Below the pieces are notes generated by a model. The model saw nothing but the letters and a program-made list of their open reading frames with translations. It was not told the DNA's origin and ran no database searches. Positions 1-42,725 of a DNA stretch of 49,162 bases are shown here, in pieces. Position 1 is the stretch's first letter, and every line of letters begins with the position of its first letter. Source of the stretch: Reclinomonas americana ATCC 50394 (taxonomy: Eukaryota). The stretch is from NCBI GenBank assembly GCA_048213135.1, contig PS015512.1, positions 18,043 to 67,204 of the forward strand, in the 5' to 3' direction. The translations under genes and the position numbers were made by a program.

Positions 1-1648
1 CCCGCAGGCGGCCGACTGCAACAAGCACCAGTGGGGCGAGTATCAGCTGACCGTGAGCAACGGTCGCGCGTACGAGGCGCTGTACACGAATGCCACGCTG
101 CGTGGCGATTTTGCGGCCATGTGGCAGAAGATTGCCTCCACGTTTGTCGACGCCCCCAGTGTGTTTTACGAGATCCTCAACGGTGTGTTTCTGTGCTCGC
201 CTGTGGTTTTTCTCCCTCTCTCTCACTCACTTTAATTGTTGTGCAGAGCCGTGGGCCGGCGATGTGTTTGCTCATCCCACCCTGCTGGTGCCTGGAGTGG
301 CCGACCGTGAGCGACTGGCGCCGTTCTACGATGTCGTCGTCAAGGCCATTCGCGAGGTGGGGAGTGAAAGAGCAGTAGTTCTTGTGCTCACTCGTGTGCT
401 GACCGTGCTGTTCAGGTCGACGAGCATCACTTGGTGCAGATTGAGGTGTGTAATTCAAATCGCTCGTTCAGATCTTTTCTGTTCCCTCACTGCGAATGCA
501 CACAGGCTGGTCTGCAAGTGGGACCTCGCTGACTACGTGATCGTCCAGTTCGTTGCCTTACATTGCGTGTGCCACACAGTCACCTGGGACGACATTACTG
601 TTGGCTTCGAGCACGTTCCCGTCAGCAACGACTATGCCAACCGCACGTGCGTGTACAAACCTCTTTTCCCCCGTCAATCTATCTGCTCACCGTCGCCGTG
701 GCTGCAGGGCGCTGTCCATCCATTTCTACATTCCGCCGCAATTCTCACTGGAGGAGCAACTCAGCTCGCACTACCGAGTTGCGTTCCAGTTTTGTTTGCG
801 AATCCCACCATGCACTTTCCTGCGGCTAACGTGGTGGGTAACCATGGTCAGGATGTCGAGCGCATTGGCGGCGGATGGATGCTCACCGAGTTCAGCATCC
901 CGTCGCCAGCCGATGCCAAGTCTCTGGCCGAGTTCGACAAGGTGCGCCCGCCATTCCACCGTCACTCCCTTCTAGGTCACCGATGAATATTTCCCAGACG
1001 TGCAACGCTGCCGACGCGCGCGCGCTGAGCTGGATTGGCTGGGAGTTGTGTTCCTCGTTGCTCGCCTGCAGCAAGGAAGGAGAGTTCTCACTCCCCTCTC
1101 CCTCTCGCTCCCGCCAGGTACAAGCGATTCCGCAACAACAAGACCGGCTGGGCGGATCCGTTCTGGAACGCCGACGGCTCGCGTAACGAGGTGATGATCA
1201 AGGCCGCATCGCGCACCTACGCTCGTGCAGTGGCCGGCCACATCGAGGACATGCGCTTTGACTCGTTGCGTGAAACAGGGAGTACATCGCGCCGAGTCGC
1301 CTGAATTCACGTTCTCCTCTTCCTTTCTCGCAGGAAAACCGGCGACTTTGTGCTCAAGTTGTGTCGTTCTGCAGCAGTCAGCTCCAGTCGCAGGCACTCA
1401 CCCACTCTACCCTTCTCTTCTCCCCCGCCAGGTTCACCGTGCAGCCGCCCAACGAGTGTCGCTCGTCGGTCACCGAGATCTTCGCGTCGGTCCGCCACTG
1501 GTACACCTCCGGCATGCCGAAGGTCACCGTGTCGCCGACCAACGCCGCCACCATCACCCAGTCGGCCTTCAGCGACTCCATTATGCTGACCACGAGCTCG
1601 TCGGTCAAGCCAGGCACCCTCATCACGGTGACCATCAAGGCGGCATAA
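1..1648 (+). CDS. Glycoside hydrolase family 5, endoglycoceramidase-like (5' end outside window, 10 introns visible)
   Basis: Spliced translation gives YEILN-EPWAGD (acid/base NEP motif, split by intron 183-246), VQIEAVTWDD, GGWMLTEF (nucleophile), LSWIGWEYK and SRTYARAVAG. These motifs are typical of eukaryotic endoglycoceramidases. Stop TAA at 1646-1648. Confidence 0.85.
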
Positions 1649-1696
1649 AAGCACAGTTTGGTTGTCCTTTGTCTTCCCTTTCTTCATTGTCTATCG

Positions 1697-4600
1697 ATGG
1701 ATGACTACCTCGCGGAGATCCAACGCGGCCTCCAACAAGCCGTGTTCGCCCAGGCCAACGCCTCCGATCGCGACGCACAGTCATCCGCGTCGTCGTCGTC
1801 GCCATTCCCGCGCAATCCCTTCTTTGCACTCGCCAAGTATCTCCTCAGTGCCGATGCCGCGTTGCGTGTTCACACGCACACACACACACACACACACACT
1901 CACTCGAGAGTGACTACGGTGTGTAGCTTGACACTCCAGCTCGCCAACGCAGTGCCCTGATGCGCCAACACTCGCAAAACAACCCGTGGGAACCCGATCG
2001 CAACCGCCAATCCACGCGCCTCAATCCCACCTCCGACTTGTCGCACTTCCCAGGTCTCTCTCTCACACACACAGACACACCCCACGCCCACTCTCCTCAT
2101 GTCGCTGATCAAGTCGCTTTTGTGAAGACTCGGATGCGTGTGGGTTCGCACCACTGAATGCTCTCCTCAGTCGCATGGTGTGTCTTCCACGGGCTCAGTG
2201 AGGGCGAGGGAGTGTGGCGTGAGCCTGATCGTTGACCGCACAGCATGTGCGATGCTTGAAAACGGTGCTGGGCGACCTGCTTCCGGCGGACCTTGTCACG
2301 GAGACGCTCGATGGATCGCTCTCCGCAGTTCTGCACAGTTGTTCCTGTTGTCGGTCGTTTGTGGTCACCCTTCCCACTCAGGATCCTGTAGAACGTACGG
2401 CGAGTGGTGGTTCCGGCCGGCGATATTCTGCTCGGCAACAGCGTGCTGCCAGTGGTGTCGACAGTGGACGTGCATGTGGTGCGTCGTGGTTGGCGATGTG
2501 AGCTTGCTGGTGGACCATGTGCTCATCATGATCGTGCAGTTGTATCGGGTGGAGACGGCCGATGTTGGTACAGCAGTGGAGGTGTTTGCGCTCAACGTGG
2601 CGGCCGATCTGACCGCCATCAGCGCCGAGATGTTGTTGCACGGTATTGCCTCACTCGTCGAATGATTGCCACCGTGACGCTGCGGTTTCTCACTATTGTG
2701 CGCAAAGGTCTTTTCCTCACCGACAGCTCTGGTTCGGTCCTGCACTGGGGTCGCATCGCCGTCACCGCAGCCAGTGACGAAGAGATGGTGGCGGCCATTG
2801 AGACCGCACTGCAGAGCACGGAGGCGCGCCGCATTGATGCCGAGGTGAGGTCGATCGTGATTGCTCATGTGTGTGCATTGCCATTCGTTGCTCACTTGCC
2901 GTGCCACAGTTCATGGGCCGGCTGCCGGTGACGGGGCGTGCAAAGCTCGCTGCGAGTGACTGTCGACTGCGGCTGCATTTCGCGCTGGTGCACGCTGAGC
3001 GTGGCAATCGGTTCGTGTGTTGACGGCGACGCGACGCACTGTTGAGCCATTCAGTCTCACTTTGTAATGCAGCGAGACGAGCTACGAGGCGCAGCCGTGC
3101 TTGCCGCTGCGAGAGGGCATGTTTTTGAGTGCAAACGATGCGTCGTGGTACGAGCGTTTGCATGCCGGCAGATCGGATCGCACCAAGACAAGCGCCGTGT
3201 TGCGTGTGCTGTCGCAGCGGAGAAAGCGTGCACTTCTCATTTGATGTTCTCGCACAGTGTCATGCATCGCGCCGCGGTGATTCAGGAGGCCGAAGTGCAC
3301 GTGAATGTGTTTGGAACGCTCGTGCACGCGTTGATGGTGGCCGCCTACAGCGAGAGCTGGAACGCCGTGCGTACACTGCAGCGAGTGCTCTCCTCGGCGG
3401 CCGCCGGATTGCATCACTGTCAGCAGTTGGCCTCTGCGATTGCAGACTTGCTGCAGGATGTGCAGGTTGGGCACTGGTAGCCACCATGCGCCACTTAAGT
3501 CTTCATGTAGTGCTGACCGCAGTGGTTGCAAAAACAGGATGAGCTGACCGACTTTGACGACATTGTGGGAACGGCACACTCGCTGTTGCGTCAGTGTGGC
3601 GAATCGCTGGAGATCATTGGTCGACAGGCACTGCTGCCATTCGAGTGCAATCAGCAGGTGATCCCACTGCTGTTGGCACGGCATGCGGCTGTGGACCTGG
3701 CCTCGGCCGGGCGAGACACTGCCTCGGTGTTGGTGAGAGAGTCTTCACATGCAACGCATGCCACCGTTACTTTCCCCTTTCCTTATGCATCTCGATGAGC
3801 AGCTGGCACTTGGCGATTTCATCGGGTGTTTGCACGCCGCAACAAACTCAACTCTGCTGTCGCAAATCTACGCTGTTCCCACTGTGCGTACGTGGTTGGG
3901 GTCACTCTTGAATCCCACAGCCTCGGTGACTTCGCCAGTGGCGTCGACGGTCGACGGCCTATTTGCGGCGTGGTCGTCGTTGAGCGTGGACATGCCGGAG
4001 GATGTTGAGTACGAGGGTGGTGGAGACGTGAGCGAGGATGCTCGAAGGCGCGACGAAATGTCGGAGCATTTGGTCGGCGTTGTGTCCCCGGCCGCTCTCA
4101 GTTGCATGCACTACGCCATCGAGACGCGTCTGGAGGAGACACTGGCCGCGGTGATGGAGGAGGCGGCTGAGAGTCGCGTGCAGCGCAACAGCTTCAACGT
4201 GACGTGCGAGCTGCTGGTGCATCGCGGCATCCGGTTAGTTGCTGCTGCGGTAGTGCTCTCCGACCTCGGCGTGCTTCTCACGTTATTGCTCTGCATCGTG
4301 GGCAGGCTGGCAGCAGAAAAGGTCGGGCTGAATCGGGTGCACGGGCGAGTGGACGGAACCACGAACCTGTGGTTCTCGCAGGCCGGTGGCGAGGATAGCA
4401 CAAGGTGCAGCGTTAATGTTGCGATGCTTGTGCCTCCCTCGGTCAACTGATTTGCATCAACGCAGGTTGTACGGTCGATGGAGTGTGCTCTCGCAGGTGG
4501 ACACGGCGAGTTTTGTTGGTACGCTAGCCAAGTTGGGGCTTGTGGTCACGTCACTGGATGTGTCGTCTATTCCGGAGGTGTGTGCCACGATGTTATCCAT

Positions 4601-6068
4601 TAGCGTGGGATCGCTCATGTGATGTGATGCTTTCGTGGTGGGGTGCAACAGTGCGTCTCGGTGTGCGGCATTCCGATTTCTAGCGCACTGCAACTGTCGC
4701 GCTCCGCCGCTTGCGTACAAGTGCGCGAGGACTGCTTTGGTATGCACGTCTGCTTACGATAGCAAGGCTGTACTCTCTCATGCTCACTTGTACGACCACG
4801 CGCAGTTGACGAGTTTGAATGGTCGGCCGTCGCCGCAGTTCTCGTGTCCTTTGTCAGAGTATTGCAACAACAGTCGACACAGTACGCCGTGACAGGTAAC
4901 TGATCATCCCTCTCGCAGTCCCTTGTGCCGCACGCAGCTCAGCAGGCAATGCTTGTGTGCAGATGTGACGGCTGGCGATCGTGAATTTGAGTGGGAGAGT
5001 GCAGATGACGACAGTCTTGCCGCCGACGTGCAGGCCGGCCTCGAAGAATTCGGTCACGTCTGCATTGTGGTTCGCAGTCTCAGTTCCATGCTTGTGCGTC
5101 TCCTGCTGCTACAGGTGCATCGCACTCACCTTCTACATTATGTCTGGCAGGGCGTGGTGCTGCTGGATGGGCAGTTGGTGGTGCCCTTTGAACGACGCCT
5201 GTACATTCACAACACGGCCGAGTCGGCACCCGCTGAGATGCCGATGCGTGGACACGAGCTGTGGTCGACTGGCCTGGTGCACTGGACACCCGAAGCCAGT
5301 GTGGTGGTGCATCAGCGGACGCCTGTTGACAGTGCTCGTTTGCTCTCTCCGTTGCGTGCCGATTGTCAATAGCCGTGACTGGCAGAGATTGTCCTCACTT
5401 CCTCCTCCGTACGCAGGCTGCGCTCGCTGCTGGCGCGCAGCATGGAACGCGACGGCGCACAACGGATGGCCGCAGTAGCCTCGGTGGCCATTGGCTGTTG
5501 CGCCGAGGAGTCAGGCAATGAGAGCGATAACGCGACATTAGCGTTGGCTCTGCGCCGCTTCTTCAAGTCGCCAGCCGGTGCCTTTCTGCGACTCGAGACA
5601 CAGTGTCAGTCCCTCGTCGCTGCTTTGCGACAGCACAGTATCTTGTCGTCGGTAAGGCATACGAACACGGAGAGGGAGATAAGTTTCTACTTTGATGACA
5701 CTGATCGACGGTCGCAGAAAACCACACGACAGCAATTTCTCGATCACTGCGTCCAGCAGCTGGCGCCGCTTCGCCGTGGCGAGGCGGTGTCTGGCCTGTT
5801 CATGCGCAGTGCTTGGTCGGCATTGCACAGTTGCGTTCCCGCGTCTTTTGAGTTTGGAGCTGCACGCGTGGCTCATCCGCACACAACAGCGAGCTGCGCG
5901 ACGCTGCGCAGCATGCACAAGGATGGTCGCGTGAAACACGCGAGATCAGCGGAACTCACAGAGGCTCTAACGCGCCTCGCCTCCGCACTGACGCTGCAGC
6001 GACTGTTGTGGGATCGACTGGCGTACGAGGTGCTGGTGGAGCAGCCGAATCGCGGACTGCTCTCATAG
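1697..6068 (+). CDS. Large multi-exon hypothetical protein with an N-terminal Dpy-30/RIIa-like docking motif
   Basis: ATG at 1697 gives MDDYLAEIQRGLQQAVF...PRNPFFALAKYLL, resembling a D/D-type motif. Coding-like blocks separated by short GT-AG introns continue to a last exon ending LLWDRLAYEVLVEQPNRGLLS* at 6068. The exon chain is not fully resolved and this could be more than one gene. Confidence 0.55.
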
Positions 6069-6141
6069 TAAACAACTACTGACTATGCTCGCGGTTAGTG
6101 GTAAACCTAGTGTTCTGCGTATGCGCCTCTTATTGTGTGCC

Positions 6142-8354
6142 TCACACGGAGAACAGTCGCACGCTCTGCTGCGGTAGCGCCAGGAACTTGGCCTGCAGCT
6201 CCTTGCCGTTCACGAGCAGCGTGGTAGGATTCTGCACGCGGACCGACGGGAATTCGAAATGCTGCGCATGGAATGAGTGAGCAGCGCTGGCGCGAACCAC
6301 TGCGACGCAAGCAAGCAATCGCAACTTGTTCCCGGGCCTCGAAGTTCTGCAGAAACAAGTGCGGCTGGCGAATCACCAAAACATCTCCGTCGTGGATGGC
6401 CCGCGGCGCAATGTTGTAAATGGAGAGCGCAAATCGTTGCCCCGTTGAGTCCGCCGCCACATACGTCCTGCAAAAAACAGTCTGTCAGTCACACACACAC
6501 ACACATTGATACACTGCACGTTATTCTTGCGCAACAGAGGAGCCGACGTCTCGTCCGACGCCAACCGCACAATTCCACACGCCAAAATGCCGTCGGCAGC
6601 TGCCGCACTCCTGCTGCTGCTCCCGTCGGCACCACCGGCGAGGAGCGTCTCGACAGTCACGGCTGCAGCGCCACCGTCGCGATGCGCCTTCTCCACTGCT
6701 TCCCGGGCCTTCCGAGGCTTGAGGTGACCCTGCATGAGCACCAACACGTCAGTGCACTCTCATCACTGCCACAGCACCCGACATCACGACGACGGCTGAA
6801 CCTTTTTCAAAACCAGCTCCTTTAGTGCGCTGAGAAACGCGCCCGTCCGCTCCAGCTCGTGCGCCGCCTCAGTGAACAGAGGATCCAATTCGAGAGCGCG
6901 CGAGAAATGGCGAATGGCATCGGCGTAGTTCTCCATGTGCCGACACACCTCGGCGCAGTTGAAGTACACGTCTGGATCGCTGTCGGTGGGAGGTTTCGAT
7001 AGCTGGCGGCGCACGAGTGAGCTCGTGGAAGCAGAACGTACTCTGTGTGTGTGTGTGTGCCGCTGACTCACCGCCTGACCAAACGCCTTGAGTGCCGTCA
7101 CCAGGTCCTTCAGATCGTGCGACACCACCATGTAGTACGACAGCGAGGCGGTTCCCAGTGCGGCCCATGAGGGTCCATCATCCACGTTGACTGCGATGGC
7201 CTTGCGAGCCAGCTGCACACTCTCGGCGACGGCATCGTTCTCCCGCGGAGTCCCTGCACGCACGCCGACGTGCGTGAGAGCGATGCACATCGCATGCTGT
7301 CTGGGTCGCGGTCACCTCACCTCTCGCGGCGATGCGCATCACTCGTGACAGTTCGCGCTGTGCGGTCTGGTTCGCGGCATCCTGTGTGAAAAGCAAGCTG
7401 TTTAGCACACCGCATGGAAGCAAGAAAGAATCACGCGACAAGCGATCGACCTTTTCCAGCGCGGTGCGAAAGCACGTTTGCGCCGACTCCAAGTCGCCCT
7501 TTTTCCACATGCAGTGCCCCAGTGTGTTCCACGCCGCCACCAGTTCCGGATCCAGTCGCACCTGTGGTGGAGAAAGCAATGAGCAAGAGGGAGAGAGAGA
7601 CACGAGGGGAGAGAGAGAGAGAGAGCGTTTCATGCACACAACTGCCTTGGACAGGTGCGCCAGGCATGGNNNNNNNNNNNNNNNNNNNNNNNNNNNNNNN
7701 NNNNNNNNNNNNNNNNNNNNNNNNNNNNNNNNNNNNNNNNNNNNNNNNNNNNNNNNNNNNNNNNNNNNNNNNNNNNNNNNNNNNNNNNNNNNNNNNNNNN
7801 NNNNNNNNNNNNNNNNNNNNNNNNNNNNNNNNNNNNNNNNNNNNNNNNNNNNNNNNNNNNNNNNNNNNNNNNNNNNNNNNNNNNNNNNNNNNNNNNNNNN
7901 NNNNNNNNNNNNNNNNNNNNNNNNNNNNNNNNNNNNNNNNNNNNNNNNNNNNNNNNNNNNNNNNNNNNNNNNNNNNNNNNNNNNNNNNNNNNNNNNNNNN
8001 NNNNNNNNNNNNNNNNNNNNNNNNNNNNNNNNNNNNNNNNNNNNNNNNNNNNNNNNNNNNNNNNNNNNNNNNNNNNNNNNNNNNNNNNNNNNNNNNNNNN
8101 NNNNNNNNNNNNNNNNNNNNNNNNNNNNNNNNNNNNNNNNNNNNNNNNNNNNNNNNNNNNNNNNNNNNNNNNNNNNNNNNNNNNNNNNNNNNNNNNNNNN
8201 NNNNNNNNNNNNNNNNNNNNNNNNNNNNNNNNNCGTGCGCGACATGCTGCTGCCGCCGCCACTCGCCCTCCAACGCATACCGCTCAAGCTCGTCCACCAG
8301 CTGCGTCTCTGCAACCCACGTCGATGTCGACGAAGACGACGCCGATGATGCCAT
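6142..8354 (-). CDS. TTC5: Tetratricopeptide repeat protein 5 (TPR repeats plus C-terminal OB fold), interrupted by an N-gap
   Basis: Spliced peptides [97 protein letters not shown] and C-terminal FPSVRVQNPTTLLVNGK all match TTC5/STRAP. Confidence 0.9.
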
Positions 8355-8393
8355 CCGCTCACACTACAACACCCGCGCAAAACAAAGAAAAGC

Positions 8394-8976: not shown

Positions 8977-11763
8977 GAGGTAGGCGCTCATTGAGACGCG
9001 GCTGTCGTCGAGCGAGTTCCGCGCGGCAGTGTTGGAGGCGTGTCTCGGCGATTTGGAGCACCCCGAGGTGCGCGTCAGGTGCGATGTTCGCGACTGTGAG
9101 GGAGGGAGAGGAGGAGGTCGCTGATCGCTCACCGCAACTACACACGTGTAGGCTGTCGATCGCCGAGGCCCTGTACGCGCTGACTCTTGTCGATGGGCTC
9201 TCCGTGTTTCTTCCCGTGCGAGAGTTGCGTGTCGTCCGTCGCCGAGGAGAAAGCTCACACACAGTGATCGCGACCGACTCTCACGTGCCGCGCCACAACG
9301 CAGAGTGCTGGAGGAGTGCATCATGAGCAACTATCACCGGTCGGTGGGGACGGTGAGTGGCGACGCAGAGGATTCGGTCGGTGATTCGGGTCGTGTGTCG
9401 CCGTCGGTGAGTCTTCTGTGCGCCCTGCCCCCACTCCCCACTCTCTGACTTACCGTGGTGATGTGCGTGATAAAGGCTCCGCCATTGTCGCCGCGCAGCA
9501 CGGCACTGGGAGTGAAGCGTGTGGATGTGCTGGTGGGTCGCCGACGTGCGCTGTGTATCTCCCGCATCGTTCTTGCTGTCTCACGAGAATCGTCGTGGTG
9601 TCGCAGCATGACACAGAGGGCTGGAAGTCGTTGGAGACGTGCATGAAGGCCCTGCAGCGCATCTGCGAAGCTCTCGGCCCGGAGCTGTTTGCCGAAATCG
9701 CCAACCCCGAGTTCGTGCAGTTTGTGTTGGACACCCTGACGCACACCAATCGGTTTGTGCGCGAGACGGGCTTCTTCACGTGCGCCTCGTTTGCGCGACT
9801 GGCCAGCGTCGAGTTTCTGGAGAGGTGTGTTGCGCGCTTGTTCTTTTTCTCTCTCCTCGACCGCTGATTGTATGTGTGTGTGTCTGCGTGCAGCATTGCT
9901 GAACAGTTGTCCAAGTCGCTGGCGCGTGGCTTGGCCGACAACTGGAGTCAAGTGCGCTTTGGTTTGTTTGCGTACGCCGGTGGCTCGTTGCATCGCATGG
10001 GAGGGGTGTTGACGGCCCGCATACTGCAGCGTCCAGTGTGGCCACACGCGAATTCTTCACCAAGATTGTCGACGATCGCGAGCCGTACCTGCCGACTCTG
10101 GTGCCACCAATGTGTCTCAATCGGTACTATGTGGCGGAGGGAGTGCGGCGATACTCGCAGGAGACATGGCAGCGAGTCATGGGAGACACCGGGCGCACCA
10201 TCGTGGCCCGCTTCATCTCGCAGGTGGTCGACTTTTACATTGCACAGACAGAGGCCGAGAATCATGCCGTCCGCGAGGTACTTGGCTCCAAGAAACGTTG
10301 TTCGTTGCGCTTTCGTTGACTGTGAATGTGCGTGTGTAGGCAGCGTGCCAGTGCATCGCCGAGTTGGCTCGCCGTGTGGATCGGGAGGTGTGCGCTCTGT
10401 ATCTTTTGCCTGCGTGATCGTCGAGCTGCTGACACGCGGTTGGCGCTGCGAGTAGGCAGTCAGTCCGTATGTGCCGCGTCTACTCGACGCCTTGATTGTG
10501 TGTTTCCGTGACGACAGCTGGCCCGTGCGAGATGCGGCTTGTCTCGGTGAGCGCGCGTGCAATGTTCTTCCCTGCACGAGCTCTGATTTATGATTAACTG
10601 TCTCGCGCAGCGTGTGGATATTTTGTGGAGTCGTTCCCGGAGGAGTCGCGCGGTGAGTTGGACGGACTCTTTGAGGACTGGTTCAGCCAGCTGTCGGACA
10701 GTTGCGTCGCACAAATAAGACGTGCAAGAGGGAGAAGAGGGAGTACTGAGGTCCGTGCGACAGACATTTGGAGTGTGCGCGAAGACAGTGCGATTGCGCT
10801 GGGACGAGTGATGCGTGCGTACGGCAGCGAGGCCGTAACGCGCGTGGTGGAGTATCTGCGGGCGAACTTTGATCGCGTGCGTGAGCAACCGGATGACTCG
10901 GTGAGGTATCGCGGTCTGGCCAACACGACGACATTCGGCGTGGCCTCCACCAAGACTCTGCGTGACAATGATCCACACATTCACACGGATCAGCAGGTGA
11001 GATGCAGCAGCAGCGTGTGTCACACAGCGTGGTGCTTGCTCATGGCATCGATGGGCAGGCCTTTTCGTGTGGCTCGTTGGCTCCGCGTATGCGAAAAGGC
11101 AGCAAGACCAAGTCGTCGTGCGGCTGCATGAACTCGTTGTTCACCCGCGAGCGTGAGCCGTGGGAGTACACCGACGGCTGTGTGTACCTGCTGCGGTGCG
11201 TGTGTATTCCTCTCTATGTGTGTGTGTCGAGTGCTCACCGGCACGACGTGCAGCGAGTTGGCGGCGCAGGATGTCGACGCTGCGATCGAGTTCATCCCCA
11301 AGCTGTTTGCTGCAGTTGCGTTCATCGCACGTTGTTCTTTTTTCCTGGTTACAGCGGTCTCACGCAGCGACGCACTCCACATGCAGGCACGAGCGAACAG
11401 CTTCACGCACTATTACAACCTGTGGGAGACGGTGTGGAAACAGCTGCCGACAATCGCCTCAGTGAGTCTGCTGCACCCAATGGCCACTGCTATCGCGCAC
11501 CACGCAACTCACTCGTGCGGCGCACGCAGCACATTGGCAAGCGACGATTCAAGAACGAGTTCTTTGACGAGACCGTACAGGTGGCCTGCGAGTGCCTCGA
11601 GCGCAGCGACAACCCGCTGGCGCTCTCGGCCACCGGCGAAGCTCTCGAGCGTCTGAGCCACCTGATCGGCGCCCGCGTGTTCTGCAGTCGCCTCGACGAT
11701 CGCCACCGCGACTGCATCTCCCGTCACGCCGATGTCTGTCACCTCAACGTCGAAACTCGGTAA
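8440..11763 (+). CDS. HEAT/ARM-repeat protein (about 15 introns)
   Basis: Spliced frame is open from MATSVSAG to NVETR*. It contains HEAT-like motifs HTNRFVRETGF, GLADNWSQVRFASSVATREF, AENHAVREAACQCIAEL, CFRDDSWPVRDAACLA and LSDNIWSVREDSAIALG. Confidence 0.8.
8789..8975. repeat. (TG)n microsatellite inside a HEAT-gene intron, contains an N-gap
   Basis: Directly visible TG dinucleotide run on both sides of the gap at 8870-8889. Confidence 0.95.
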
Positions 11764-11812: not shown

Positions 11813-13199
11813 ATGGGCGCGCAAGGGAGCAAAGTGCAGCCGCTCGTCAACCCTGCTCTCGTGTCTCGCGAGCTGACAGAGGAACAACGAGCAAGGTCAC
11901 CACTTGCGCTCGCATGTGAGTTGGAGAAGGAGGCTTACTTGCTTCACATGCAGATTTAATGAGCTCTTCACAACGCTGGCGGGCAAGTCAAACAAATCAG
12001 TTGCGCCTTCTGTCTCTTGAGAGAGTGCGGGAGACTCCCACACTTACACACACAGGCACACACAGATCACAAAACAAGCATTCCTTGATCATGTGGCCGA
12101 GATCTCAACATCTGACTCACTTGCCGCGTTTCGTCTTCTCTCACTCACTCACATTCACGCAGTTACACTCACTCGACTGTGTGTGTTGCGCACATAGGTG
12201 GGAGAACCTGTTCCGAGTTCTCGATGTTGGTCTGTTGTTGTTGGTGTGTCCTTTCTTTGTGTCGAGCTCTCAACTGCGCACACAGATGGCAATGGATCGC
12301 TTGATCGAGACGAGTTCCTGTGCGGGTGAGCTAACAGTGAGAGCCATGTTGCGTGCGCATGGATGTGTTGACGCGCGATCGCGCACAGGTGCATTGTAAC
12401 GTCGGCGAATGGACTGCAAGAGGAGAAACTCCGAGCGCTCTTCAAGGTTATCTTGCTGGCGAGTGTTCTCTGCACGCGTGCGACTCATATGTGCGTGGTA
12501 GATGGTGGACTTGAATGGCGACGGGCATGTGACGCGAGAAGAGGCGACCACGGTGTGGCGATCGATTATCGTCACGACGCAGGTGTGCGGCGTTTTGCTG
12601 TGCCTCACTTGTCTCACGCGTTCTTTTCATCTCTCTCTCTGTGCAAATGCAGTTTGCAGGGTTGATGGTCCTCGCCAAGCAATACGAGCAGCACGATGCC
12701 GAGGAGCTGCTGGAACTCGGACGCCAGTATCTACGCACCAACGAGGTGAGTCCGATCTCGTCTCTTTGCTGGTGCAGCAGTAGTAGGTGGTGAAAGCAAT
12801 CGCCGTCATGCAGCTCAAGCTCGAATGCTACGTGGCCGAGGTGGTGAATGCGTGCTTTGAGGAGCTGGACGAGGATGGCGACAATGAGGTAGCACGCTGC
12901 GCGCCTGTTCGTTTCTCGACTCTGCGCGCTCATCGCTTCGTCGACACCAGATTTCAGAATGCGAGTGGATGTCGCAGCTGCACTCACCGAAAGCGTCGTC
13001 GGCACCGCAAGTGTGGCTCTCCATCTTGCAGGTCTTGTGTAGCAGCCTTCCTTTTCCACAGCCTCGCTGTCTCTCACACTGCTAGCACGCGCAGCCCGGA
13101 GCCGACGTTATCAATCCCGAAGCACTGGTCGATTTCGCACAGGGTTTCTTCGAGGGCGCCTTCGGTCGTGCTCAAGCTGTCGAGTGTGGACTGCAGTAA
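11813..13199 (+). CDS. EF-hand calcium sensor (calcineurin-B/NCS-like) with N-myristoylation motif and C-terminal CaaX-like motif
   Basis: Starts MGAQGSK. EF loops are DVDGNGSLDRDE, DLNGDGHVTREE and DEDGDNEISECE, with EEKLRALFKMVD between loops as in CnB/NCS proteins. The last exon ends VECGLQ* (TAA 13197-13199). Confidence 0.8.
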
Positions 13200-25730: not shown

Positions 25731-26809
25731 TCATAGTTTTGCTTGCAAACCTCCCGTCGAGGATGATGGCGATGGTTGTGGTCTCTTCTCCTCCGCTTCT
25801 TCGTCCTCCACCGGTGGTGGTCTCGGATGCTGGTCCCACACCGATTCCTTGATACCCTGCGGAGGGAGCGTTGAGGGAGTTTGTACGTATGTGGAAGTGC
25901 AGAAGTGCAGACACACAACTTGCGGCAGCGACATTGCGATCGACAACAGCGTGCCTGCATCGACCGCCGACAGGTTCTCCAAGGCCAGCACCGGCACGCC
26001 AAAGACGCGTATTCTGGCCAGGCTCGACTGCCCCGACTGTCGATTGCCGGCGAGGATGCGAACGCGCACCACACGCGTGGGTCCGAGCGACTTGTCCGAG
26101 AGGTTCAGCTCAAAGGGCACACACTGCAGGCGCGCATGTCAGGCCACGCCACACACACGCATTCATGTGGGGTGCGCACCGGCTGCACGTTCTGCGCCAC
26201 TTGCAGCACAATCCACTTGGTGCCGTCCTCGCTGCGCAGCGAAATGTCGAGCTCGTACGGCGCATGCTGTGCGGGCGCCACCACCTCTATTCTTCGCACG
26301 TGCACCAGAAAGCGCAGACGGACCTGTACACACTCGACACACTCAACACACATACACACGCGCGCGCACAAGGCAGGCGAGGCAGCGAGACCTGCAATGA
26401 GATCGGGTACTCTGGCGAGGCCGACGACAACCAGAAGTCTTTGAGGCCGTATCGCAACACGTTTTCCAGCGGATGCCCCGGGTGTGTGCGAGTGGAGGCA
26501 CCCACAATGGTGGCCCCTGCTGACTCGTGTGCAAAGTCAAACACGCGATCCTGCAGTTGCTCTACGTGTGCATGCATGCATGCATGCGAATGAGTGAGTG
26601 AGCGAGTGAGTGATTCTTCCGCCACTGAGATGCGCACCGATGATCTTGTCTGTGACACTGCGACCGAAGAAGCTCGCGAGTGCGGTCTGCGCGGTCACTG
26701 TCAGTGTGTGCATGCGGGGTCGATGTGAGGGCGATCATGTGCGCTCACCAGCATCTTTGTACAACGAAATGCCGGGTTTCTCGTCCTGCCCCGCCGGCAA
26801 TCCTGTCAT
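25731..26809 (-). CDS. Galactose-binding-like (IFT25/HSPB11- or APC10-like) domain protein
   Basis: Spliced DFAHESAGATIVGASTRTHPGHPLENVLRYGLKDFWLSSASPEYPISLQVRL...VVRVRILAG...SLARIRVFG resembles the IFT25/discoidin jelly-roll pattern. The start codon and exact family are uncertain. Confidence 0.55.
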
Positions 26810-29900: not shown

Positions 29901-30748
29901 CACGGCATCGATTTCCGCATCCTTCTCCGCCAGTCGGCGGTTCAGGTCGCGAATCTGCTGCACCGACGACTCCTTCAGATCGTCCAATCGCTGCGACAAG
30001 AGCAAACGATCGGCCTCCAACTCGGCCACACGATCGTCCGCTCCGTGCCTCGCTCCATCCTCCAGCACAGCAATCTGGCCCTCCAGCATGGCGACGCTGT
30101 CGCGGGAGAAAAGGTGGAGAAGTGAGTGGGAATGGAGGGGAAGGAGAGAAGAATAGGAGACATGCTGCATGCTCCTGTCTCCTATCCTCACCGATGCCGC
30201 ATCTCGTCACGCTCCAATCGCAAATCATCAATCTCCCGCTGATACAAGCGCATACGCTGCTCCAGCTCCTGCGACGCCTGCAAACGCGACGCCAACGCAC
30301 TCATCTCCTGCTCCAAGAACACATTTCGACTGCGCTGGTAGCTCAACACCCGCTCCAGTTCCTCCACCGTTCGCTCCTGCACAAAAACGCAACCAGTCAC
30401 CACGCGCGTGCATCCACATCATCAACCGCAGCGAAAGTGCACGAAACCAGCGGAGCAGCGGCAGAAGCAGCAGCGGCCGCTGATGGATCTGTATCCGACG
30501 GCTGCGGCGGCCACTGTCGCGTCACAGAAGTTGCTGACTCGCCCGCTCGACTGCGCGTACATCGTCAGGCATCCACCAAGCACACGCGCACACGGAATGC
30601 GTCTCTCTCGTTCACGTTGCGCGCGAAAGAACATGCAAAGTCGCACGAACCTGTTGTGAGGAATCGCCGCTGCCTGTTCGCTATCGGTCGCCGACGATCG
30701 CGCGCGCTGCGGCTGCTGCTGCTGCTGCTGCTCGCTCTCCGACGACAT
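26963..30748 (-). CDS. Long coiled-coil protein with a Ser/Pro-rich disordered C-terminus
   Basis: Chain of E/R/L/Q-rich heptad exons joined by GT-AG introns (e.g. RMRVENARLGDEIDGLRQELAEQR, LLEHENANLKETVRDMSREVDILKGEV). The C-terminal exons are rich in RSPSP and poly-Pro. No family recognised. Confidence 0.7.
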
Positions 30749-31553: not shown

Positions 31554-34163
31554 ATGAGCGGCAAGAAGGGCGGCAACAAAAAGATGCAGGTGGAGAGAAG
31601 GCTGGATTTGAAGGCGTACTCGGAGAACCCTTCGGTTGAGTGCGGAGAGAGAGGAGGGGGGGGGTGGGGGGGTGGGAGGTGGGGGGAAGGGTGGGGAGAC
31701 TGAGAGAACAGTGTCGGAGTGTGATGGGCGCTGTTCAGAAGAGAAGGGCATTCATTCTCTTACCACGCGTCCGGAGGAAAGGAGAGTGAAGTGCCGGAGC
31801 AGTTCTCCGACGGATGAGAGAAGCCCCGCTCTCCCTTTCCTGCAGTCAGGAATCCCTTGCCAGTTTACGCGCTTCTTACATTTCTCTCTCTTTCTCTCTC
31901 GCAGTACATACGAGGCACTCTGCTGCTCGGTTCACCTACTGACGAGCAGGATGAGGGGACGGAGGCAGCGGGGATGACATCTGGTGACGAGAGTGAACGA
32001 GTGGACGAGGAGTTGGTGCGGTTGTCTGACGGAAACCCCAAGCGCACTCGTGAGAAGCAACATGAGCACGACCACAACATGCGCAAGATGTGGGCCAGTT
32101 GCGTGCACGCGGTGAGCAAGTTGCACTGCGTGCGTGTCACTCACCGTGCGCGTGCTGCAGTGTTGTTCATGACGGGCGGCTTCATGATTGTCGAGCTGAT
32201 TGTGGGGTGAGTTGTGGTAGTGGGAGGAGAGAGAGTGACGAGGAGCATAGGAGCTGACGCAAATTCCCGCAGTTTCTCAACAAATTCGCTGGCGCTGATT
32301 GCCGATGCGTTCCACATGATTAGCGACACGATTTCTCTGGTGATTGGTATGATGGCGCTGAAGGTTCGTGTGTGGTGGTGGCGGAGCATTGGCGCGTCGG
32401 GGTGCTGGTGTCTGACTTGTGTGACGGGGTGTGCGCAGGCGAGCAAGAAGGCACGCTCCGAAGCCATGACGTACGGCTACGCAAGAGCAGCAGTGCTCGG
32501 TGCACTCATCAACGGTGTCTTTTTGTTGGCATTGGTGTTTACGATTATTCTCGACACGATTGAGCGGTGCGTGGAGAGGGCGAAGGCCGGTGGGGAAGGC
32601 AGAGGGGTGGCGATTCACTCACTCTCTCCCCTGCGCACTCCCAGCTTCATCTCCATTCAAGAAATCTCGAACCCGAAGCTGTTGGTGATTGTGGCCGGCA
32701 CTGGTCTCGCAGTCAACCTGCTCGGCTTGGTGATTTTCGGTGGCCACGCTCACCACGGCCACAGCCACGGTCATGACCACGGACACAGCCACAGTCACAG
32801 CCACAGCCACGGCGAGGAACACGCTCACCACGACCACGGCCACAACCACGCTCACGGTGAAGATGTGGAGTGTGTCGCTGGTGCCGGTCACGGCGAGCCA
32901 AGCAGCGCCGGCCACGACCACGGACACGATCATGGTCCCGTTCATGGAAAGGTACGAGGGAGAGGGGTGCACGTTGCACAGAAAGCGACGACTTCTTCTC
33001 CCAACTCTCTCTTTTGTCCCTCTCACCCCCGTCATGCACACTACGCAGGACGGCCACATGAACATGCACGGCGTCTTCCTTNNNNNNNNNNNNNNNNNNN
33101 NNNNNNNNNNNNNNNNNNNNNNNNNNNNNNNNNNNNNNNNNNNNNNNNNNNNNNNNNNNNNNNNNNNNNNNNNNNNNNNNNNNNNNNNNNNNNNNNNNNN
33201 NNNNNNNNNNNNNNNNNNNNNNNNNNNNNNNNNNNNNNNNNNNNNNNNNNNNNNNNNNNNNNNNNNNNNNNNNNNNNNNNNNNNNNNNNNNNNNNNNNNN
33301 NNNNNNNNNNNNNNNNNNNNNNNNNNNNNNNNNNNNNNNNNNNNNNNNNNNNNNNNNNNNNNNNNNNNNNNNNNNNNNNNNNNNNNNNNNNNNNNNNNNN
33401 NNNNNNNNNNNNNNNNNNNNNNNNNNNNNNNNNNNNNNNNNNNNNNNNNNNNNNNNNNNNNNNNNNNNNNNNNNNNNNNNNNNNNNNNNNNNNNNNNNNN
33501 NNNNNNNNNNNNNNNNNNNNNNNNNNNNNNNNNNNNNNNNNNNNNNNNNNNNNNNNNNNNNNNNNNNNNNNNNNNNNNNNNNNNNNNNNNNNNNNNNNNN
33601 NNNNNNNNNNNNNNNNNNNNNNNNNNNNNNNNNNNNNNNNNNNNNNNNNNNNNNNNNNNNNNNNNNNNNNNNNNNNNNNNNNNNNNCACGTGCTGGTGCA
33701 CGATGCGCTGGAGGTGGATCATACCATTGAGGAGGTAGTCAGCGTGTTTGCGCGATACGGCGTCGAGTCGACCACCATTCAGCCGCTGGTGGTGCGCGAG
33801 GAGGCCGAGCAGTGCCTCACCTGCAAGCCGGGCGCTGGCGAGGGAGCCACGTCGTCGTCATCGGCGGCGACGGCGGCGGCCGGGCGGAGAAGTGGCGAAG
33901 GGTCGGCGGCCGGTGGCGGCAGTGGGGCGTCCGGCTCGATGCATCGGAGTATCGTGCTCAAGTGCCCCGACAAGTCGTGCGAAGGCATCCAGTTCCGGGC
34001 CGACGTGCCACGCAGTCGATCGGTGGCTTCGTCGGTCTCGGCCGCATCCTCCAGCTCCATGCTGCTGCTGCCACGCGGTGCCAGTGCCGGTAGTGTGGGT
34101 ACGGGGTTGACGGGGGCCGGAGGCAGCAGCACAGGCTTGAGCTCGGTGGCCGAGCGGGAATGA
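31554..34163 (+). CDS. Cation diffusion facilitator zinc transporter (ZnT1/SLC30-like) with a His-rich loop; contains an N-gap
   Basis: FMIVELIVGFSTNSLALIADAFHMISD (HxxxD metal site), MTYGYARAAVLGALINGVFL, GLAVNLLGL, a (HG/HS)n loop, NMHGVFL and C-terminal YGVESTTIQP. Start MSGKKGG is inferred from splicing. Confidence 0.92.
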
Positions 34164-36468: not shown

Positions 36469-36499
<31 letters not shown>

Positions 36500-36742: not shown

Positions 36743-39700
36743 ATGGCTGTTCCTCCGAGTCCACTGTCAGCTGGTGGCGGTGGTGGTGGTGGCAGCACGC
36801 CCGGCGGTGGCAAGCGACCCAAGCGCAACATCACGTTTGGGCCCGATTCCCACACGCTGCTCTCGGCGGTGCGACTCAACTTGCGCAAGGTACGCTTCGC
36901 TGTCGGATTGGACATGGAGAGGAGCATCTTTTCTCTCTCTTTTTTGCGGGAGCCTCTCTTTGGCTGCCACTTCTCTCTCTGTTTGTGCGTGCGTGGGTGC
37001 TGTGGAGATCGATTCCCACGAGCGAGAAAAATGCTCACGATGCTCGTTGACTTCTCATGCACCCCGCACTGTGCCTTGTCGTCTTCGTCGTTCCTGCTGC
37101 CCCGCTCGCTCATGCAGCATGCTGTGGAGTGGCTTTCCTTTGTTTGTGCGTGCGTGTGTGTGTGTGTGCTGTTGCTTCGATGTCTGTGTTCCCCTTCGCG
37201 GGAATGATTCCCTCGTGTCGTCCACTGCACCATCGGCGGTCGCGGTGTTGTGTTTTTTTGCCTTTTCGGGGCCATCAGCTGGACGTGCGCATCTTTTTTC
37301 CTTGCATTCTTGGCTGATAAGTATCCGCAGACGGGGCGGCCGCATGCCTGGGACGATGTCGCCACGTACCTGTGCCTGTGCTTGGAGGGAGCGCGCGATG
37401 AAATCGGTGAGTGCGTGCAGGGTCCAGTTTGTGTGTGCGCTCACCACGTGGACAAGTGTGGGCGGCGGGGGGGAAACTTGGCGTCTATTCGTTTCACCGC
37501 ACCAGAGCAGGGTTGTGGGAAAGTGAGAGAGTGAGCGACTGTTTTGCGCGATAGAGGGGTTGAGTGGCAGAAGAACCTTTCGCCAGTCGGAGGAACTCTT
37601 GTTGATCACACACTCGCACACACATGGTTGCCGTTCGCGTCTGAGAGGAACGTCAACTGACCCCTGCGAGGATAGATTCGGGCCGGGCGCTGTGCTACCT
37701 CCGCTGCGTGGTCTTTCTATTTTTCTTTCGTGTGCTTTGTTCGTGGACATGGCAGAGAGAAACGCTTTGTCGGGAACCATAACTTGGCGTGTGCAAGAAT
37801 GTTTCGGGGAGAATGTGCTCTACGTCGTTTCCATTCTTCACCGCACTCTTGTTTCCCGTGTGGCGATCCGAGCGGTTGCTGACCTCCACGCTAAGGAGGA
37901 GGAGATTTAAGTGCGCAATTGTTTTTGCATGTTGTGCTGCTACCTTCTCGTGGCGCATCTCCTCTGTTCATTGCACACTACTATTGCCCGTACACTTCTG
38001 GTTGCTCTCCTCCTCGCATCGCATCGTCAGTTAGAAAATCGCGACAATTTTTCTCACTGGAATCCTTGGCGCCCGCAGAGTCGGAGATGCTGCAAAAGGC
38101 GCTTCCGCGAGCCTGGGAACGATACACACTTCGCGACGGTCGGCCGCTGTATCGGAACCGTGACACGGGACGGTGCCAGCTGGAGTGGCCGTCGCACGAA
38201 CACGAGGGGGACCTGTTTCAGGATATCTCGCCACTGGTGACCGACTCGATGAGGATTCCCGTGATCGAGGAACCGGGCTTTGTGATGCTTGGCTCGTCGA
38301 CCGTGGATGTGGGGTGAGTGGTGGCGAGGGGAAGAAGAGGGAGGGAGGGAGAAAGACACGAACATGTCACCGCCACACACTTCCAGCATGCAGTTCCTTC
38401 CTTCTTGTTCTGGTTATCACTCCCCGACTTCCCTCATCATCGTGTCGCGCTGAGCATGGTTCTCTGCTCCCTGATCTACCGCCACTCTCTTCCTTCCCCT
38501 TCATTGTGTGCCTGGAGTCATTCGTGCGACTTCATTGTGCGGAGGTGGAGATTCTCCTGGTTTCCTGTCACATTGTTTCTGTTTCCGCGTCGCATCTCAT
38601 GTGGAATGCTCCGTGATCTGCAGTCCCCATCGCCCGCTGGTCCGCAGCTCAACGCGCACCTCGCCACCAGCGAATCTCCAACTGCTGCCCGTATCGCCGT
38701 CGCCATCAATTGTGCCGGCCACCTTTGCCGACCGCGGTCTGATGCTCGACTGCGGCCCAATGTCGGCCAACGCAGCCGCGCAGATGGTGACTCGCGGACC
38801 TGAGTTGCCACCACCGATGGCGGGCGGTACGAGTCGCCGCCGACTGTCGTCGCGACTCGACGAGTGTGTTGTGGATTCGGACGAGGACTCGCGTCATGCG
38901 GCGGCGGCGGCAGCAGCCGCGGCCGCCGCAGCTGCCGGGATGCCGTCTCACCTGCAGGGAGGACTGCCCATGCACTTGACGCCGCTGCCGTCGCTACTGC
39001 CGGTGGCTGGCCATGGAGTCGACGTGCCGTTGCCGCAGCTGCCGAATGTTCCCACATTGACGCCGCTGCTGACAGCGCCACTCAACTTCCCGCTGCCGCC
39101 GCAGTTTGCGAGCATGCAGATGGGCGCCGGCGTGCAGCCACCTGCTGCACACCAGTCGGGCGACATGAACGCCTTGCATCTTGCCGCTGAGATGATCGAG
39201 TGGCAGGAGATCCGGAACGCACTGGCTGCCTATCCGGACATGACCGGTCGTTGCGTACCGACACTCATCGACGATTCGTCACAAACGCACACGCACTCAC
39301 TTGTTTCGTTTTATCCGCAGAAAAAGTCACGGACTCGATGCCCATCCGCACCCTCTTTCAGCAAGTGTGCTGGCAGCTCGGGTGCACCCCGTTCCAGGTC
39401 GATCGGTGCGCTCGCTGTGTGCGCATCCTCGAGACCGAAGTTGCGCTTTCGTTCTTCTTGCGGGGCGTGTGTGCTGAACTCCACTCACTCTCATCTTTCT
39501 ACTCCAGTTTGGTGTCTCGCGACTCGCCGACCTGCGCGGCAACCAGCTCGCCATGAGCCAGATTCCGCCCGACATGCAGCCGCTGCTCGCCCCGTACCTG
39601 GTCATGGCGTTTGTTGCCTCGTCACGCAACTCGACACCCAACACGTCGGGCGCATCGTCGCCCGCATCGCAGTCGCACCTGCAACAGCTGCAACAGCAGC

Positions 39701-40152: not shown

Positions 40153-40324
40153 TGCGCCTACCGAGTAGATGTTGTTACAACAACAACAATAGCGAAACGA
40201 GCAGCACGGCGAACATGAGGAAATCGCGAGATAGTAGTGTCCTCCGCGTCCTCGCAGCGCTGCGTGTGTTGTGTTCTTTAGTGTACAGCGTTCCTCATAC
40301 ACACCTCACGAGTGACAGGAGAAG

Positions 40325-42725
40325 ATGGCAGCAAAGGCGGCGGGAGAAAGCCGCGATGAGGCGGCCTTTCTGCGGCGACTGACTGCCTTTGAGACATCAC
40401 TCACCGCCAATGCGAAAGTAGTCGATGACACGGTAGGCACACACACACACACACACAAGAAGAGAGAAAGAGAGAGAGAGAGAGAGGCGCATGGAGAGAG
40501 ACAACTGATGCGACACAAAAGATCTCACACACACGCGCGCTGTGTGATAATTCATTGCAGATTACTCTGTTGGGATCGCTGGAGAGCAAGCTGAGCACGT
40601 TGGAGACGCGACTGCAGCCGTTGCACGATGCGATGAATGAGACCTCGTTGATCTATGACAACATTGATGGCGCCATTGCGGAAATCGAAAAGACACTGAC
40701 ACAGTTTGAGGAGGCGGCGATGTTGGAGAGCGAGGCCAATCGCGGGTCTGTGTTGCACGCTGTTGCTGCGATGCTTGTGTGTCGTTTGTGTTCACTCTCC
40801 GCAGCATTCAACCGGATGGCCTGTTGGACTACTTGGAGCTGGTCGATCGTATCGATGACATGCTGGCGTTCTTTAGTGATTATGCGTCGTTCCGCAGCTC
40901 GGATCGCGTGCTGGACGCCTTGGTTTGTTGCCCGCCTTCTCTGAGTGCACACTGCCACGCTTCTCGCAACCTCACTGCGTGTGCGTGTGTGTGCGCGCGC
41001 GCCNNNNNNNNNNNNNNNNNNNNNNNNNNNNNNNNNNNNNNNNNNNNNNNNNNNNNNNNNNNNNNNNNNNNNNNNNNNNNNNNNNNNNNNNNNNNNNNNN
41101 NNNNNNNNNNNNNNNNNNNNNNNNNNNNNNNNNNNNNNNNNNNNNNNNNNNNNNNNNNNNNNNNNNNNNNNNNNNNNNNNNNNNNNNNNNNNNNNNNNNN
41201 NNNNNNNNNNNNNNNNNNNNNNNNNNNNNNNNNNNNNNNNNNNNNNNNNNNNNNNNNNNNNNNNNNNNNNNNNNNNNNNNNNNNNNNNNNNNNNNNNNNN
41301 NNNNNNNNNNNNNNNNNNNNNNNNNNNNNNNNNNNNNNNNNNNNNNNNNNNNNNNNNNNNNNNNNNNNNNNNNNNNNNNNNNNNNNNNNNNNNNNNNNNN
41401 NNNNNNNNNNNNNNNNNNNNNNNNNNNNNNNNNNNNNNNNNNNNNNNNNNNNNNNNNNNNNNNNNNNNNNNNNNNNNNNNNNNNNNNNNNNNNNNNNNNN
41501 NNNNNNNNNNNNNNNNNNNNNNNNNNNNNNNNNNNNNNNNNNNNNNNNNNNNNNNNNNNNNNNNNNNNNNNNNNNNNNNNNNNNNNNNNNNNNNNNNNNN
41601 NNNNNNNNNNNNNNNNNNNNNNNNNNNNNNNNNNNNNNNNNNNNNNNNNNNNNNNNNNNNNNNNNNNNNNNNNNNNNNNNNNNNNNNNNNNNNNNNNNNN
41701 NNNNNNNNNNNNNNNNNNNNNNNNNNNNNNNNNNNNNNNNNNACGTCACATGAAAGTCGCTGGCTTGTGTGTGGCATATCTAACACATGTGCGCGCGCTC
41801 AGGTCACACAATTCCTGCGCCGTCTGTTCGACTACTACGAGATCGTGTCGGTGTTGTTGCACGACGATCCGTCGCGACCAAATCCCGCCATGCCCGACAA
41901 CATTAGCGATTTTGCAGGTGAGCTCACTGACCGGGGATGTGATGCGTGAGACATGCTATCCTCACTTTTTCCGCCTGCGATAGGGAGCCTGCTGCGGAGT
42001 TTGGAGGACGCCATTACGCAGCGCGCCAACGGCTACAAGGACGCGCCGCATCGCGTCATTTTCATCCTCAACAATCTCGAGTTTGTGCTGCGCGAGATCC
42101 ACATCGACGATCACATCTTCGAGACGGTGCCGCTGACGGTGACGGATGGCCTTGAAGACCGCGTCGAGACACTGAAGAACGAGTTCCTCGAAAAGTCGTT
42201 GCGTGCACCACGCTTGTCGTCGTCATAAGCTGTGTCGTTTCAACTCACGACGGCTGGAGCGCAGGTGGAAAAAGGTGGTCGATCACCTGGAGCGCTCCGA
42301 CAAGCTGCTGGATGTGGCGCCGACGTCACAGAAGCTGTCGTCGACTGTCGTCAAGGAGCTCAAGAGCAGCTTTGGGGTGCGTTGACTTTTCATTGCATGT
42401 TTGTTTCTCTTCCTCAAGGAGCGAGCAGGGTTTCGTGGACTCATTCGAGGAGGCCATTGCACTGCAACGCACCATCTCCATCCCACACCCGCCTCTACGC
42501 GCCGAGATCCGCGAACGCGCCGTTCGGTGGGTGGCCTCGACCTACCACGAATTCCACGAGTCGTACTCCCGCCTCCCGTTCTCCTCCAACAATCGCGCCA
42601 AGTACCTGCGCTACTCACCAGAGGAGGTGGAGGAAACGATGGCCAAGCTGTACGAGTACTTTAGCAGCCGCCCAAGACGAGCGCCCGACGCTGCCCCGCG
42701 CGATCGACGAACCACATTTGCATAA
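40325..42725 (+). CDS. EXO70: Exocyst subunit Exo70; contains an N-gap
   Basis: LGSLESKLSTLETRLQP...YDNIDGAI, IFILNNLEFVL, VKELKSSFGGFVDSFEE, ISIPHPPLRAEIR and FSSNNRAKYLRYSPEEVEETMAKLY are Exo70 signatures. Confidence 0.92.

Follow-up and report, generated by a model that had tools for sequence, protein, structure and literature searches.

The DNA considered here is a stretch of 49,162 bases from Reclinomonas americana ATCC 50394 (contig PS015512.1, positions 18,043 to 67,204 of the forward strand), called the window from here on, and the subject is a class of its predicted introns whose 5' splice site (donor) resembles GTTGCGT, with G at intron position +6 and none at +5. The window is an intron-dense part of a draft scaffold, with a G+C content of about 59% and eight gaps of N. 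Positions are those of the window, sites on the minus strand carry a minus sign, and a slash marks the border between exon and intron. The matching of exon-bearing open reading frames (ORFs) to Pfam places here genes of the TTC5, HEAT-repeat, EF-hand, TMBIM/Bax1-I, LRR, Tsr1/Bms1-type, KTI12, CDF zinc transporter, Exo70, ANAPC4 and PHAF1/UPF0183 families, of which the HEAT-repeat protein is one that we take to be DNAAF5-like. A match to GH5-type glycosidases is weak (E=0.036, under the Pfam cut-off), and Rfam detects a transfer RNA (tRNA) gene at 34222-34294 on the plus strand with 67.8 bits. Only four of 150 long ORFs gave a Pfam match (TTC5_OB twice, TPR repeats and Bax1-I), because the exons are short, and several gene models are truncated, given that the assembly gaps break into at least the TTC5, LRR, CDF and Exo70 genes. 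The highest identity of the window's proteins to any database protein is 30-40%, and no protein identical to any window exon is on record. For TTC5, the nearest named relatives come from Phalansterium, Paraphysoderma, Vitis, Entosiphon and Salpingoeca, that is, from amoebozoans, fungi, plants, euglenids and choanoflagellates.

Introns were predicted with an exon-chain finder that used codon log-odds, forbade in-frame stops and allowed any GT...AG of 35-400 nucleotides (nt) as an intron. In the donor-agnostic model, terms for the acceptor, the branch and the length were learned and the donor information was GT alone. In the signal-trained model, donor tables were learned as well, a step that reinforces itself and was for this reason handled with care. 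High-confidence introns are those on the sense strand that measure 45-135 nt and carry CT[ACGT]A[CT] close to their 3' end. Donors with G at +5 form class A, and those that begin with GTT and have G at +6 but not at +5 form class B. Coding and non-coding frames could not be told apart by filtering the ORFs on the G+C content of their third codon positions.

Abundance and exon ends of the offset donors

A preliminary description of this DNA had listed 22 GTTG[C/T/A]G motifs as frame-restoring donors, 20 of them after an exon-end base other than G. All 22 are where it placed them, on the same strands, and G precedes the motif solely at 14443 and 31635. A GTTTCG said to fit the same pattern is present at 43051, and a GTTACG is present as well, its start being 16094 and not 16093. 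As donors, 21 of the 22 are called by the signal-trained model and 16 by the donor-agnostic one. The motif at 12000 is called by neither, and its use as a donor is not supported; it is incompatible in frame with the acceptor that both models take.

The gene models indicate that donors of this kind are common. GTTGCG is the most frequent donor hexamer when GT is the only donor information and the intron penalty is flat (9 of 134 introns), it comes first in the donor-agnostic model with 19 of 190 introns, ahead of GTGCGT with 17, and it begins 26 of 187 introns when donor tables are learned, a figure that self-reinforcement may have raised. On the sense strand, 41 of the GTNNNN sites are GTTGCG, and the heptamer GTTGCGT has 24 copies on the sense strand of the genes versus 4 antisense. 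A k-mer count with the strands pooled is uninformative (68 GTTGCG observed versus 55 expected). The agnostic high-confidence set of 109 introns holds 58 of class A, 20 of class B and a remainder of 31, probably misplaced in many cases, and the trained set of 98 holds 61, 25 and 12, respectively, which puts class B at 18-26% of the high-confidence introns. Further members beyond the 22 motifs are likely at 3199, 5351, 39250 and -25919, and donors reading GTTTCGT are called at -23368, -28964 and -30447.

The composition of the introns does not account for G at +6 after GTT, which was the comparison proposed in the preliminary description as the one that could overturn the class. Within the agnostic set, G at +6 without G at +5 is found in 20 of 28 GTT donors versus 106 of 523 sense-strand GTT sites that are not donors (p=2.5e-8) and versus 19 of 98 GTT sites in the interior of introns (p=5e-7), while GTTGCG proper makes up 14 of the 28 donors and 1 of the 98 sites within introns. 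The excess over the intronic background therefore leaves the class standing, and the gene models confirm that an abundant offset donor class is present, with a few of its members weak.

Apart from their start, these introns cannot be told from the others. In both classes the median length is 69 nt and the G+C content 0.56. CTCAC is the main branch motif, its A lying 19-20 nt before the 3' end of the intron, and GCAG is the main acceptor (GCAG/ACAG in class B, as in class A). All members of class B are GT-AG introns, their CT[ACGT]A[CT] branch has a median distance of 20 nt to the 3' end, and in 21 of 25 the frame would be lost if the intron were retained. At the called donors no U12-type motif was found; [AG]TATCCT occurs three times in the window, from which TCCTTAAC is absent. 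An all-against-all blastn of 98 introns returned only low-complexity GT/CT matches. Given that length, branch, acceptor and G+C match those of class A and that U12 motifs are missing, class B appears to consist of major-type introns that are ordinary except for how they begin.

The exon ends of the two classes are clearly different. In the agnostic set, whose model is blind to position -1, G is the last exon base in 50 of 58 class A versus 3 of 20 class B introns (p=1.3e-8), and in the trained set in 52 of 61 (85%) versus 2 of 25 (p=1.3e-11), in agreement with the earlier remark that ordinary donors mostly follow G. In the 25 class B introns of the trained set the base at -1 is A in 12, C in 6, T in 5 and G in 2. 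The enrichment of A (12 of 25 versus an exon background of 19%, p=0.001) is also seen when donors with the motif are compared with copies of the motif that are not donors (17 of 36 versus 8 of 55). The base at -2 of class A is A in 17, C in 24, G in 9 and T in 11 of 61 introns, and the exon end of class B fits this canonical -2 preference for A or C and not G.

On the intron side, class A of the trained set reads G/GTGCGT (G at +3 in 74%, C at +4 in 57%, T at +6 in 66%) and class B reads H/GTTGCGT (G at +4 in 84%, C at +5 in 76%, T at +7 in 72%). Positions +4 to +7 of class B mirror +3 to +6 of class A, as expected from the earlier description of an ordinary donor with one extra T and its G moved to +6. 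Written differently, CA/GUUGCGU is CAG/GUGCGU with the first intron G changed to U and the cut made one base upstream. The existence of the class, its frequency, its missing exon-end G and its intron positions offset by one are all clear in the predicted introns. The offset at +4 to +7, the loss of the exon-end G and the share of 18-26% of introns uphold the earlier proposal that a second recognition register is in routine use. The same description named a variant U1 or U6 snRNA, or a relaxed pairing of U6, as what might lie behind it.

Four of the junctions could be compared with homologous proteins. Homologues were gathered with contiguous ORFs of the window as queries, and in-frame variants of each junction were scored locally against hidden Markov models built from 70 zinc transporter homologues and from 18 TTC5 orthologues. 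The GTTG donor is the top in-frame variant in all four (32098, -7642, -6535 and -6325), and the alternative donor at +3 is 3.4 to 13.8 bits worse in every one of them. A GC-AG reading, in which GTT would be a Val codon and the intron would begin at GCG, was rejected on the same scores, with 206.3 versus 220.1 bits at 32098, 304.7 versus 310.7 at -6535 and 307.3 versus 310.7 at -6325. The support for the TMBIM, GH5 and HEAT-repeat junctions comes from the restored frame and the intron signals, given that homologues were not retrievable; for the TMBIM ORF, none was found at E<=10. The search with the PHAF1 exon gave one match of 30% identity, whose alignment near -47415 is too weak for the junction called there, and a metagenome scan returned no relatives of that exon. 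A search of the PDB sequences with the KTI12 and Exo70 exons gave alignments that stop short of the junctions.

Possible readings of the class

It seems on balance probable that these are real major-type introns (GT-AG, branch CT[C/G/A]AC) with a second abundant donor class, H/GUUGCGU (GU+U+NNGU), that is read by U1 in a +1-shifted register. The same element, namely G, one position and UGCGU, would be recognised in both classes, and in class B it would lie one nucleotide deeper in the intron, counted from the cut. The intron G at +1 would fill the place of the ordinary exon-end G, the base facing C8 of U1 would be U, and A at -1 would stand in for the usual -2 position. With U1 bound in the +1-shifted register, the cut would be set at the only GU by a later step involving U6, U5 and Prp8, which would have to accept that the G normally at +5 is set off from GU by one more U. 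Since the cut is fixed at GU whatever U1 does, the U6 step has to fit one extra U.

The pairing was computed with an assumed universal U1 5' end, AUACUUACCUG (ACUUACCU), which may not be that of the host. On this assumption, class B donors form on average 4.4 pairs in the canonical register, 6.5 in the shifted register and 6.6 in a register with a bulge, and the shifted register gives the most pairs in 15 of the 25 sites.

Noncanonical registers of 5' splice sites are already known, shifted and bulged ones from a very small share of human sites and from minigene experiments, and what would be unusual here is the frequency of the class in the gene models and its loss of both conserved guanines. 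Base-pairing of U1 in a +1-shifted register at atypical human 5' splice sites was described by Roca & Krainer 2009 (NSMB 16:176, as related in excerpts of PMC4856993 and PMC9311317), and excerpts of Tan et al. 2016 (PMC4856993) give the shifted and the bulged registers as experimentally established in human cells. A published test oligonucleotide for the +1 register, ACA/GUCAAGUAU, has A at -1. As far as these extracts describe the human sites, class B resembles them in its extra pyrimidine after GU, in its consensus block one base downstream, in its non-G exon end and in a cut that is made at GU and not where the U1 register predicts. It differs from them in its share of 18-26% of the high-confidence introns, known here from gene models, and in its core, which is GCGU and not the human AAGU, so that pairing with standard U1 is weak. 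In human, the shifted register is reportedly used at a few dozen sites.

The human bulge +2/+3 and bulge +3 registers (Roca et al. 2012; PMC4856993) share with class B, in the extracts concerned, an additional U that separates GU from the remainder of the motif; 68 and 51 such sites are predicted among 201,541, of which 54 and 36 are left after curation (Tan et al. 2016, PMC4856993, in excerpt). At the U6 step, a bulge would be the sole way to keep the G pairing. They differ from class B in that an exon-end G is expected there and is absent here. G at -1 and G at +5 are, in the extracts of Artemyeva-Isman & Porter 2021 (PMC8283771), the two most conserved 5' splice-site positions outside GU. 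The ordinary donors of the window comply (85% with G at -1; G at +5 by definition), whereas class B lacks both and has G at +6 (invariant by definition) and T at +7 in 72%. With U12-type introns the class shares a discrete, sharply conserved second donor motif beside the main one, but it has neither the RTATCCTT donor nor the TCCTTAAC branch, its branch and acceptor are ordinary, and it is far more frequent. No description of an abundant offset class in any organism was found in text searches by motif, whose matches were primers and unrelated text, or by register outside human, all within the main texts of papers readable without subscription, and a genome paper that describes it could exist.

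If the shifted reading is true, about one in five introns would lack G at -1 and +5 and carry these guanines one base later, a natural large-sample system in which one could ask how the binding of U1 and the later choice of the cleavage site by U6 and U5 are uncoupled, how much slippage of register the spliceosome tolerates and whether small nuclear RNAs (snRNAs) co-evolve with classes of donors. Gene finders with a single donor matrix would mis-call a fifth of the introns of this lineage, and the trained model used here erred likewise.

Several observations weigh against the shifted reading. The sample is one 49-kb window, and all junctions are gene-model predictions. Two donors of the trained model do not hold: at -6813 it called GTTTTG where homology favours aag/GTTCAGCC at -6801 (325.0 versus 310.7 bits), and its donor GTTGCGAT at -47415 is false, as the PHAF1 profile match extends to about 47370. 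The class is uneven across genes (permutation p=0.023). It accounts for none of 8 introns of the Tsr1-type gene, none of 9 of a coiled-coil gene at 16886-19587, 5 of 14 of TMBIM, 3 of 7 of the GH5-like gene and 4 of 6 of TTC5, where the wrong donor at -6813 is included. The pair counts do not tell the shifted register (6.5) from the bulged one (6.6), and with the universal U1 5' end the energy of class B is -0.26 (canonical), -0.92 (shifted) and -0.88 (bulged) versus -6.1 kcal/mol for class A. The conserved C at +5 mismatches universal U1 in either register, as does the conserved C of class A. Finally, the shifted model of the exon end gains nothing over a model with no exon preference (-1.0 and +3.0 bits), and 25 sites do not separate a shifted register from no contact with the exon.

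The same snRNAs could also read these donors with a bulge, where G+1 and U+2 would pair with C8 and A7 of U1, one U (+2 or +3) would bulge out, GCGU would pair as usual and the same bulge would form with U6. Its 6.6 pairs and -0.88 kcal/mol are on par with the shifted register, the U6 step needs a bulge anyway, a register of the bulge +2/+3 type is on record for human sites (PMC4856993, in excerpt), and two introns of the window that start with G/GTTCAGCC retain the exon-end G. Nonetheless, a bulge keeps -1 opposite C9 of U1, and G at -1 should therefore stay favoured. What is seen at -1 is G in 2 of 25 (trained) or 3 of 20 (agnostic) introns versus 85% in ordinary donors, together with an enrichment of A, and the likelihood of the exon side falls below that of the shifted alignment by 33 bits (agnostic set) and 51 bits (trained set). 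For this reason we hold the bulge to be a possible though unlikely account. A re-tuning at the level of the snRNAs themselves is distinctly unlikely. In this case the U1 5' end would differ from ACUUACCU, having co-evolved, for example, to complement the G-C-G core, or two variants of U1 (or U6), one a nucleotide longer and fit to read GUUGCGU, would each serve one donor class, and the two readers would amount to a natural two-register system touching about a fifth of the introns. The conservation of G-C-G in both classes where universal U1 has two pseudouridines, the very weak pairing of class B with universal U1 in all registers and a frequency of 18-26%, far above tolerated noise, all speak for such a change. 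To our knowledge, however, the 5' end of U1 is nearly invariant across eukaryotes, and other GC-rich genomes with standard U1 have donors of the GUGCGU type. Rfam searches of the window, both with the gathering threshold and with the limit loosened to E<=1, returned the tRNA and chance matches and no snRNA gene, and nothing there bears on this alternative.

It is very unlikely that the class is an artefact, whether a by-product of the gene models, an extra T of the assembly or GC at +4/+5 acting as the true donor. The junctions are predicted from gene models, the draft scaffold has eight N gaps, the trained model called one donor falsely and misplaced another, and GTTGTG sites are ambiguous as tandem GTs. 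Yet models blind to the donor recover the class, homology favours it at all four junctions scored, with the GC or GT alternative at +3 worse every time, and GTTGCGT has a sense bias of 24:4. An assembly error is further disfavoured because ordinary donors with a spurious T should still be preceded by G at -1, contrary to what is observed. That the class is a separate population, either U12-type introns or mobile 'introner' copies carrying a GTTGCGT start, is extremely improbable. A sharply conserved start of 7 nt would fit it, but the called donors lack [AG]TATCCT, TCCTTAAC is absent, the branch, acceptor, length and G+C are those of ordinary introns, and the similarity between introns is limited to GT/CT repeats.

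Individual sites and neighbouring features

The sites are collected in Table 1.

Table 1. Predicted introns with offset donors, and assembly gaps, in the window (exon end in lower case, slash, intron start)
Feature	Position	Strand	Exon end/intron start	Remarks
63-nt intron, CDF/ZRC1-type zinc transporter	32098..32160	+	cca/GTTGCGTG	best of 5 variants, 220.1 vs 213.4 bits (GC at +3: 206.3); spliced product gapless
81-nt intron, TTC5	7562..7642	-	gca/GTTGTGTG	best of 4, 310.7 vs 304.3 (GT at +3)
68-nt intron, TTC5	6468..6535	-	tct/GTTGCGCA	best of 13, 310.7 vs 304.7; acceptor at start of Pfam TTC5_OB match
64-nt intron, TTC5	6262..6325	-	caa/GTTGCGAT	best of 10, 310.7 vs 308.8; TTC5_OB 36-86 then 80-112 abut
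74-nt intron, GH5-like	778..851	+	cga/GTTGCGTT	both models; CTAAC branch motif
73-nt intron, ambiguous	1045..1117	+	gga/GTTGTGTT	tandem GT: trained 1045, agnostic 1048
69-nt intron	1265..1333	+	ctc/GTTGCGTG	both models
74-nt intron, ambiguous	1358..1431	+	caa/GTTGTGTC	tandem GT: trained 1358, agnostic 1361
59-nt intron, beyond the 22 motifs	3199..3257	+	cgt/GTTGCGTG	both models
66-nt intron, beyond the 22 motifs	5351..5416	+	tcc/GTTGCGTG	both models
80-nt intron, HEAT-repeat (DNAAF5-like)	9224..9303	+	aga/GTTGCGTG	both models
63-nt intron	10701..10763	+	aca/GTTGCGTC	both models
72-nt intron	11315..11386	+	gca/GTTGCGTT	both models
GTTGCGC, listed earlier as donor	12000..12006	+		neither model; phase 0 misfits acceptor 12197, would need CAG near 12163
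220-nt candidate intron ahead of TMBIM gene body	13585..13804	+	gct/GTTGCGTG	both models; long, no homology support
62-nt intron, TMBIM/Bax1-I	14085..14146	+	acc/GTTGCGTG	both models
80-nt intron, G at -1	14443..14522	+	tgg/GTTGCGTC	both models
85-nt intron	15087..15171	+	cat/GTTGCGTC	donor in both models, agnostic acceptor later
69-nt intron	15269..15337	+	gct/GTTGCGCC	trained model only
63-nt intron	15556..15618	+	gac/GTTGCGTA	both models; few in-frame alternatives
63-nt intron, beyond the 22 motifs	25857..25919	-	caa/GTTGTGTG	both models
65-nt intron	28722..28786	-	gaa/GTTGAGTG	both models
270-nt candidate intron	31635..31904	+	tcg/GTTGAGTG	trained only, agnostic 31616; no upstream homology
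71-nt intron, beyond the 22 motifs	39250..39320	+	gtc/GTTGCGTA	trained 39250, agnostic 39247
68-nt intron	39440..39507	+	gaa/GTTGCGCT	both models
67-nt intron, Exo70	42198..42264	+	gtc/GTTGCGTG	both models; Exo70_C roughly continuous (to 266, then 303 past 37-aa exon)
69-nt intron, GT + T + TCGT form	28896..28964	-	caa/GTTTCGTG	trained model; few in-frame alternatives
71-nt intron	30377..30447	-	ctg/GTTTCGTG	trained model
94-nt intron	23275..23368	-	tta/GTTTCGTG	trained model
65-nt candidate intron	43051..43115	+	aca/GTTTCGCG	agnostic model only
N runs (20-739 bases)	7670-8233, 16179-16881, 33082-33686, 41004-41742 and four shorter

The GTTGTG donors at 1045, 1358, -7642 and -25919 are tandem GTs three bases apart, and at -7642 homology favours the first GT. 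The tandem GTs at 1045, 1358 and -25919 are candidates for alternative splicing that would add or remove one codon.

The introns at 6730-6801 in TTC5 and at 47303-47379 in PHAF1, both on the minus strand, belong to unrelated genes and open with an identical 8-mer, G/GTTCAGCC. They have G at +6 and none at +5, the exon-end G is kept, and they may be a bulged-U subtype. In PHAF1, the donor agag/GTTCAGCC is visible at 47379, and the intron from it is consistent with the Pfam coordinates and the family motif.

GTGAGT is found 36 times antisense and 17 times sense to the genes across the window. This is due to the high frequency of the branch motif CTCAC, whose complement gives rise to it, and a search for donors on the wrong strand could be led astray by it. 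A chain of low-complexity ORFs on the minus strand overlaps the tRNA gene, and its 287-nt 'intron' from 34491 probably only skips the tRNA, which makes the gene model there doubtful. In the gene of the EF-hand protein, the stretch 11813-12230 on the plus strand has odd first donors: AAG/GTCACC, followed by GTCAAA at 11987 or, with another acceptor, by GTTGCGCC at 12000. The gene's product starts with MGAQGSK, presumably a start of the N-myristoylation type.

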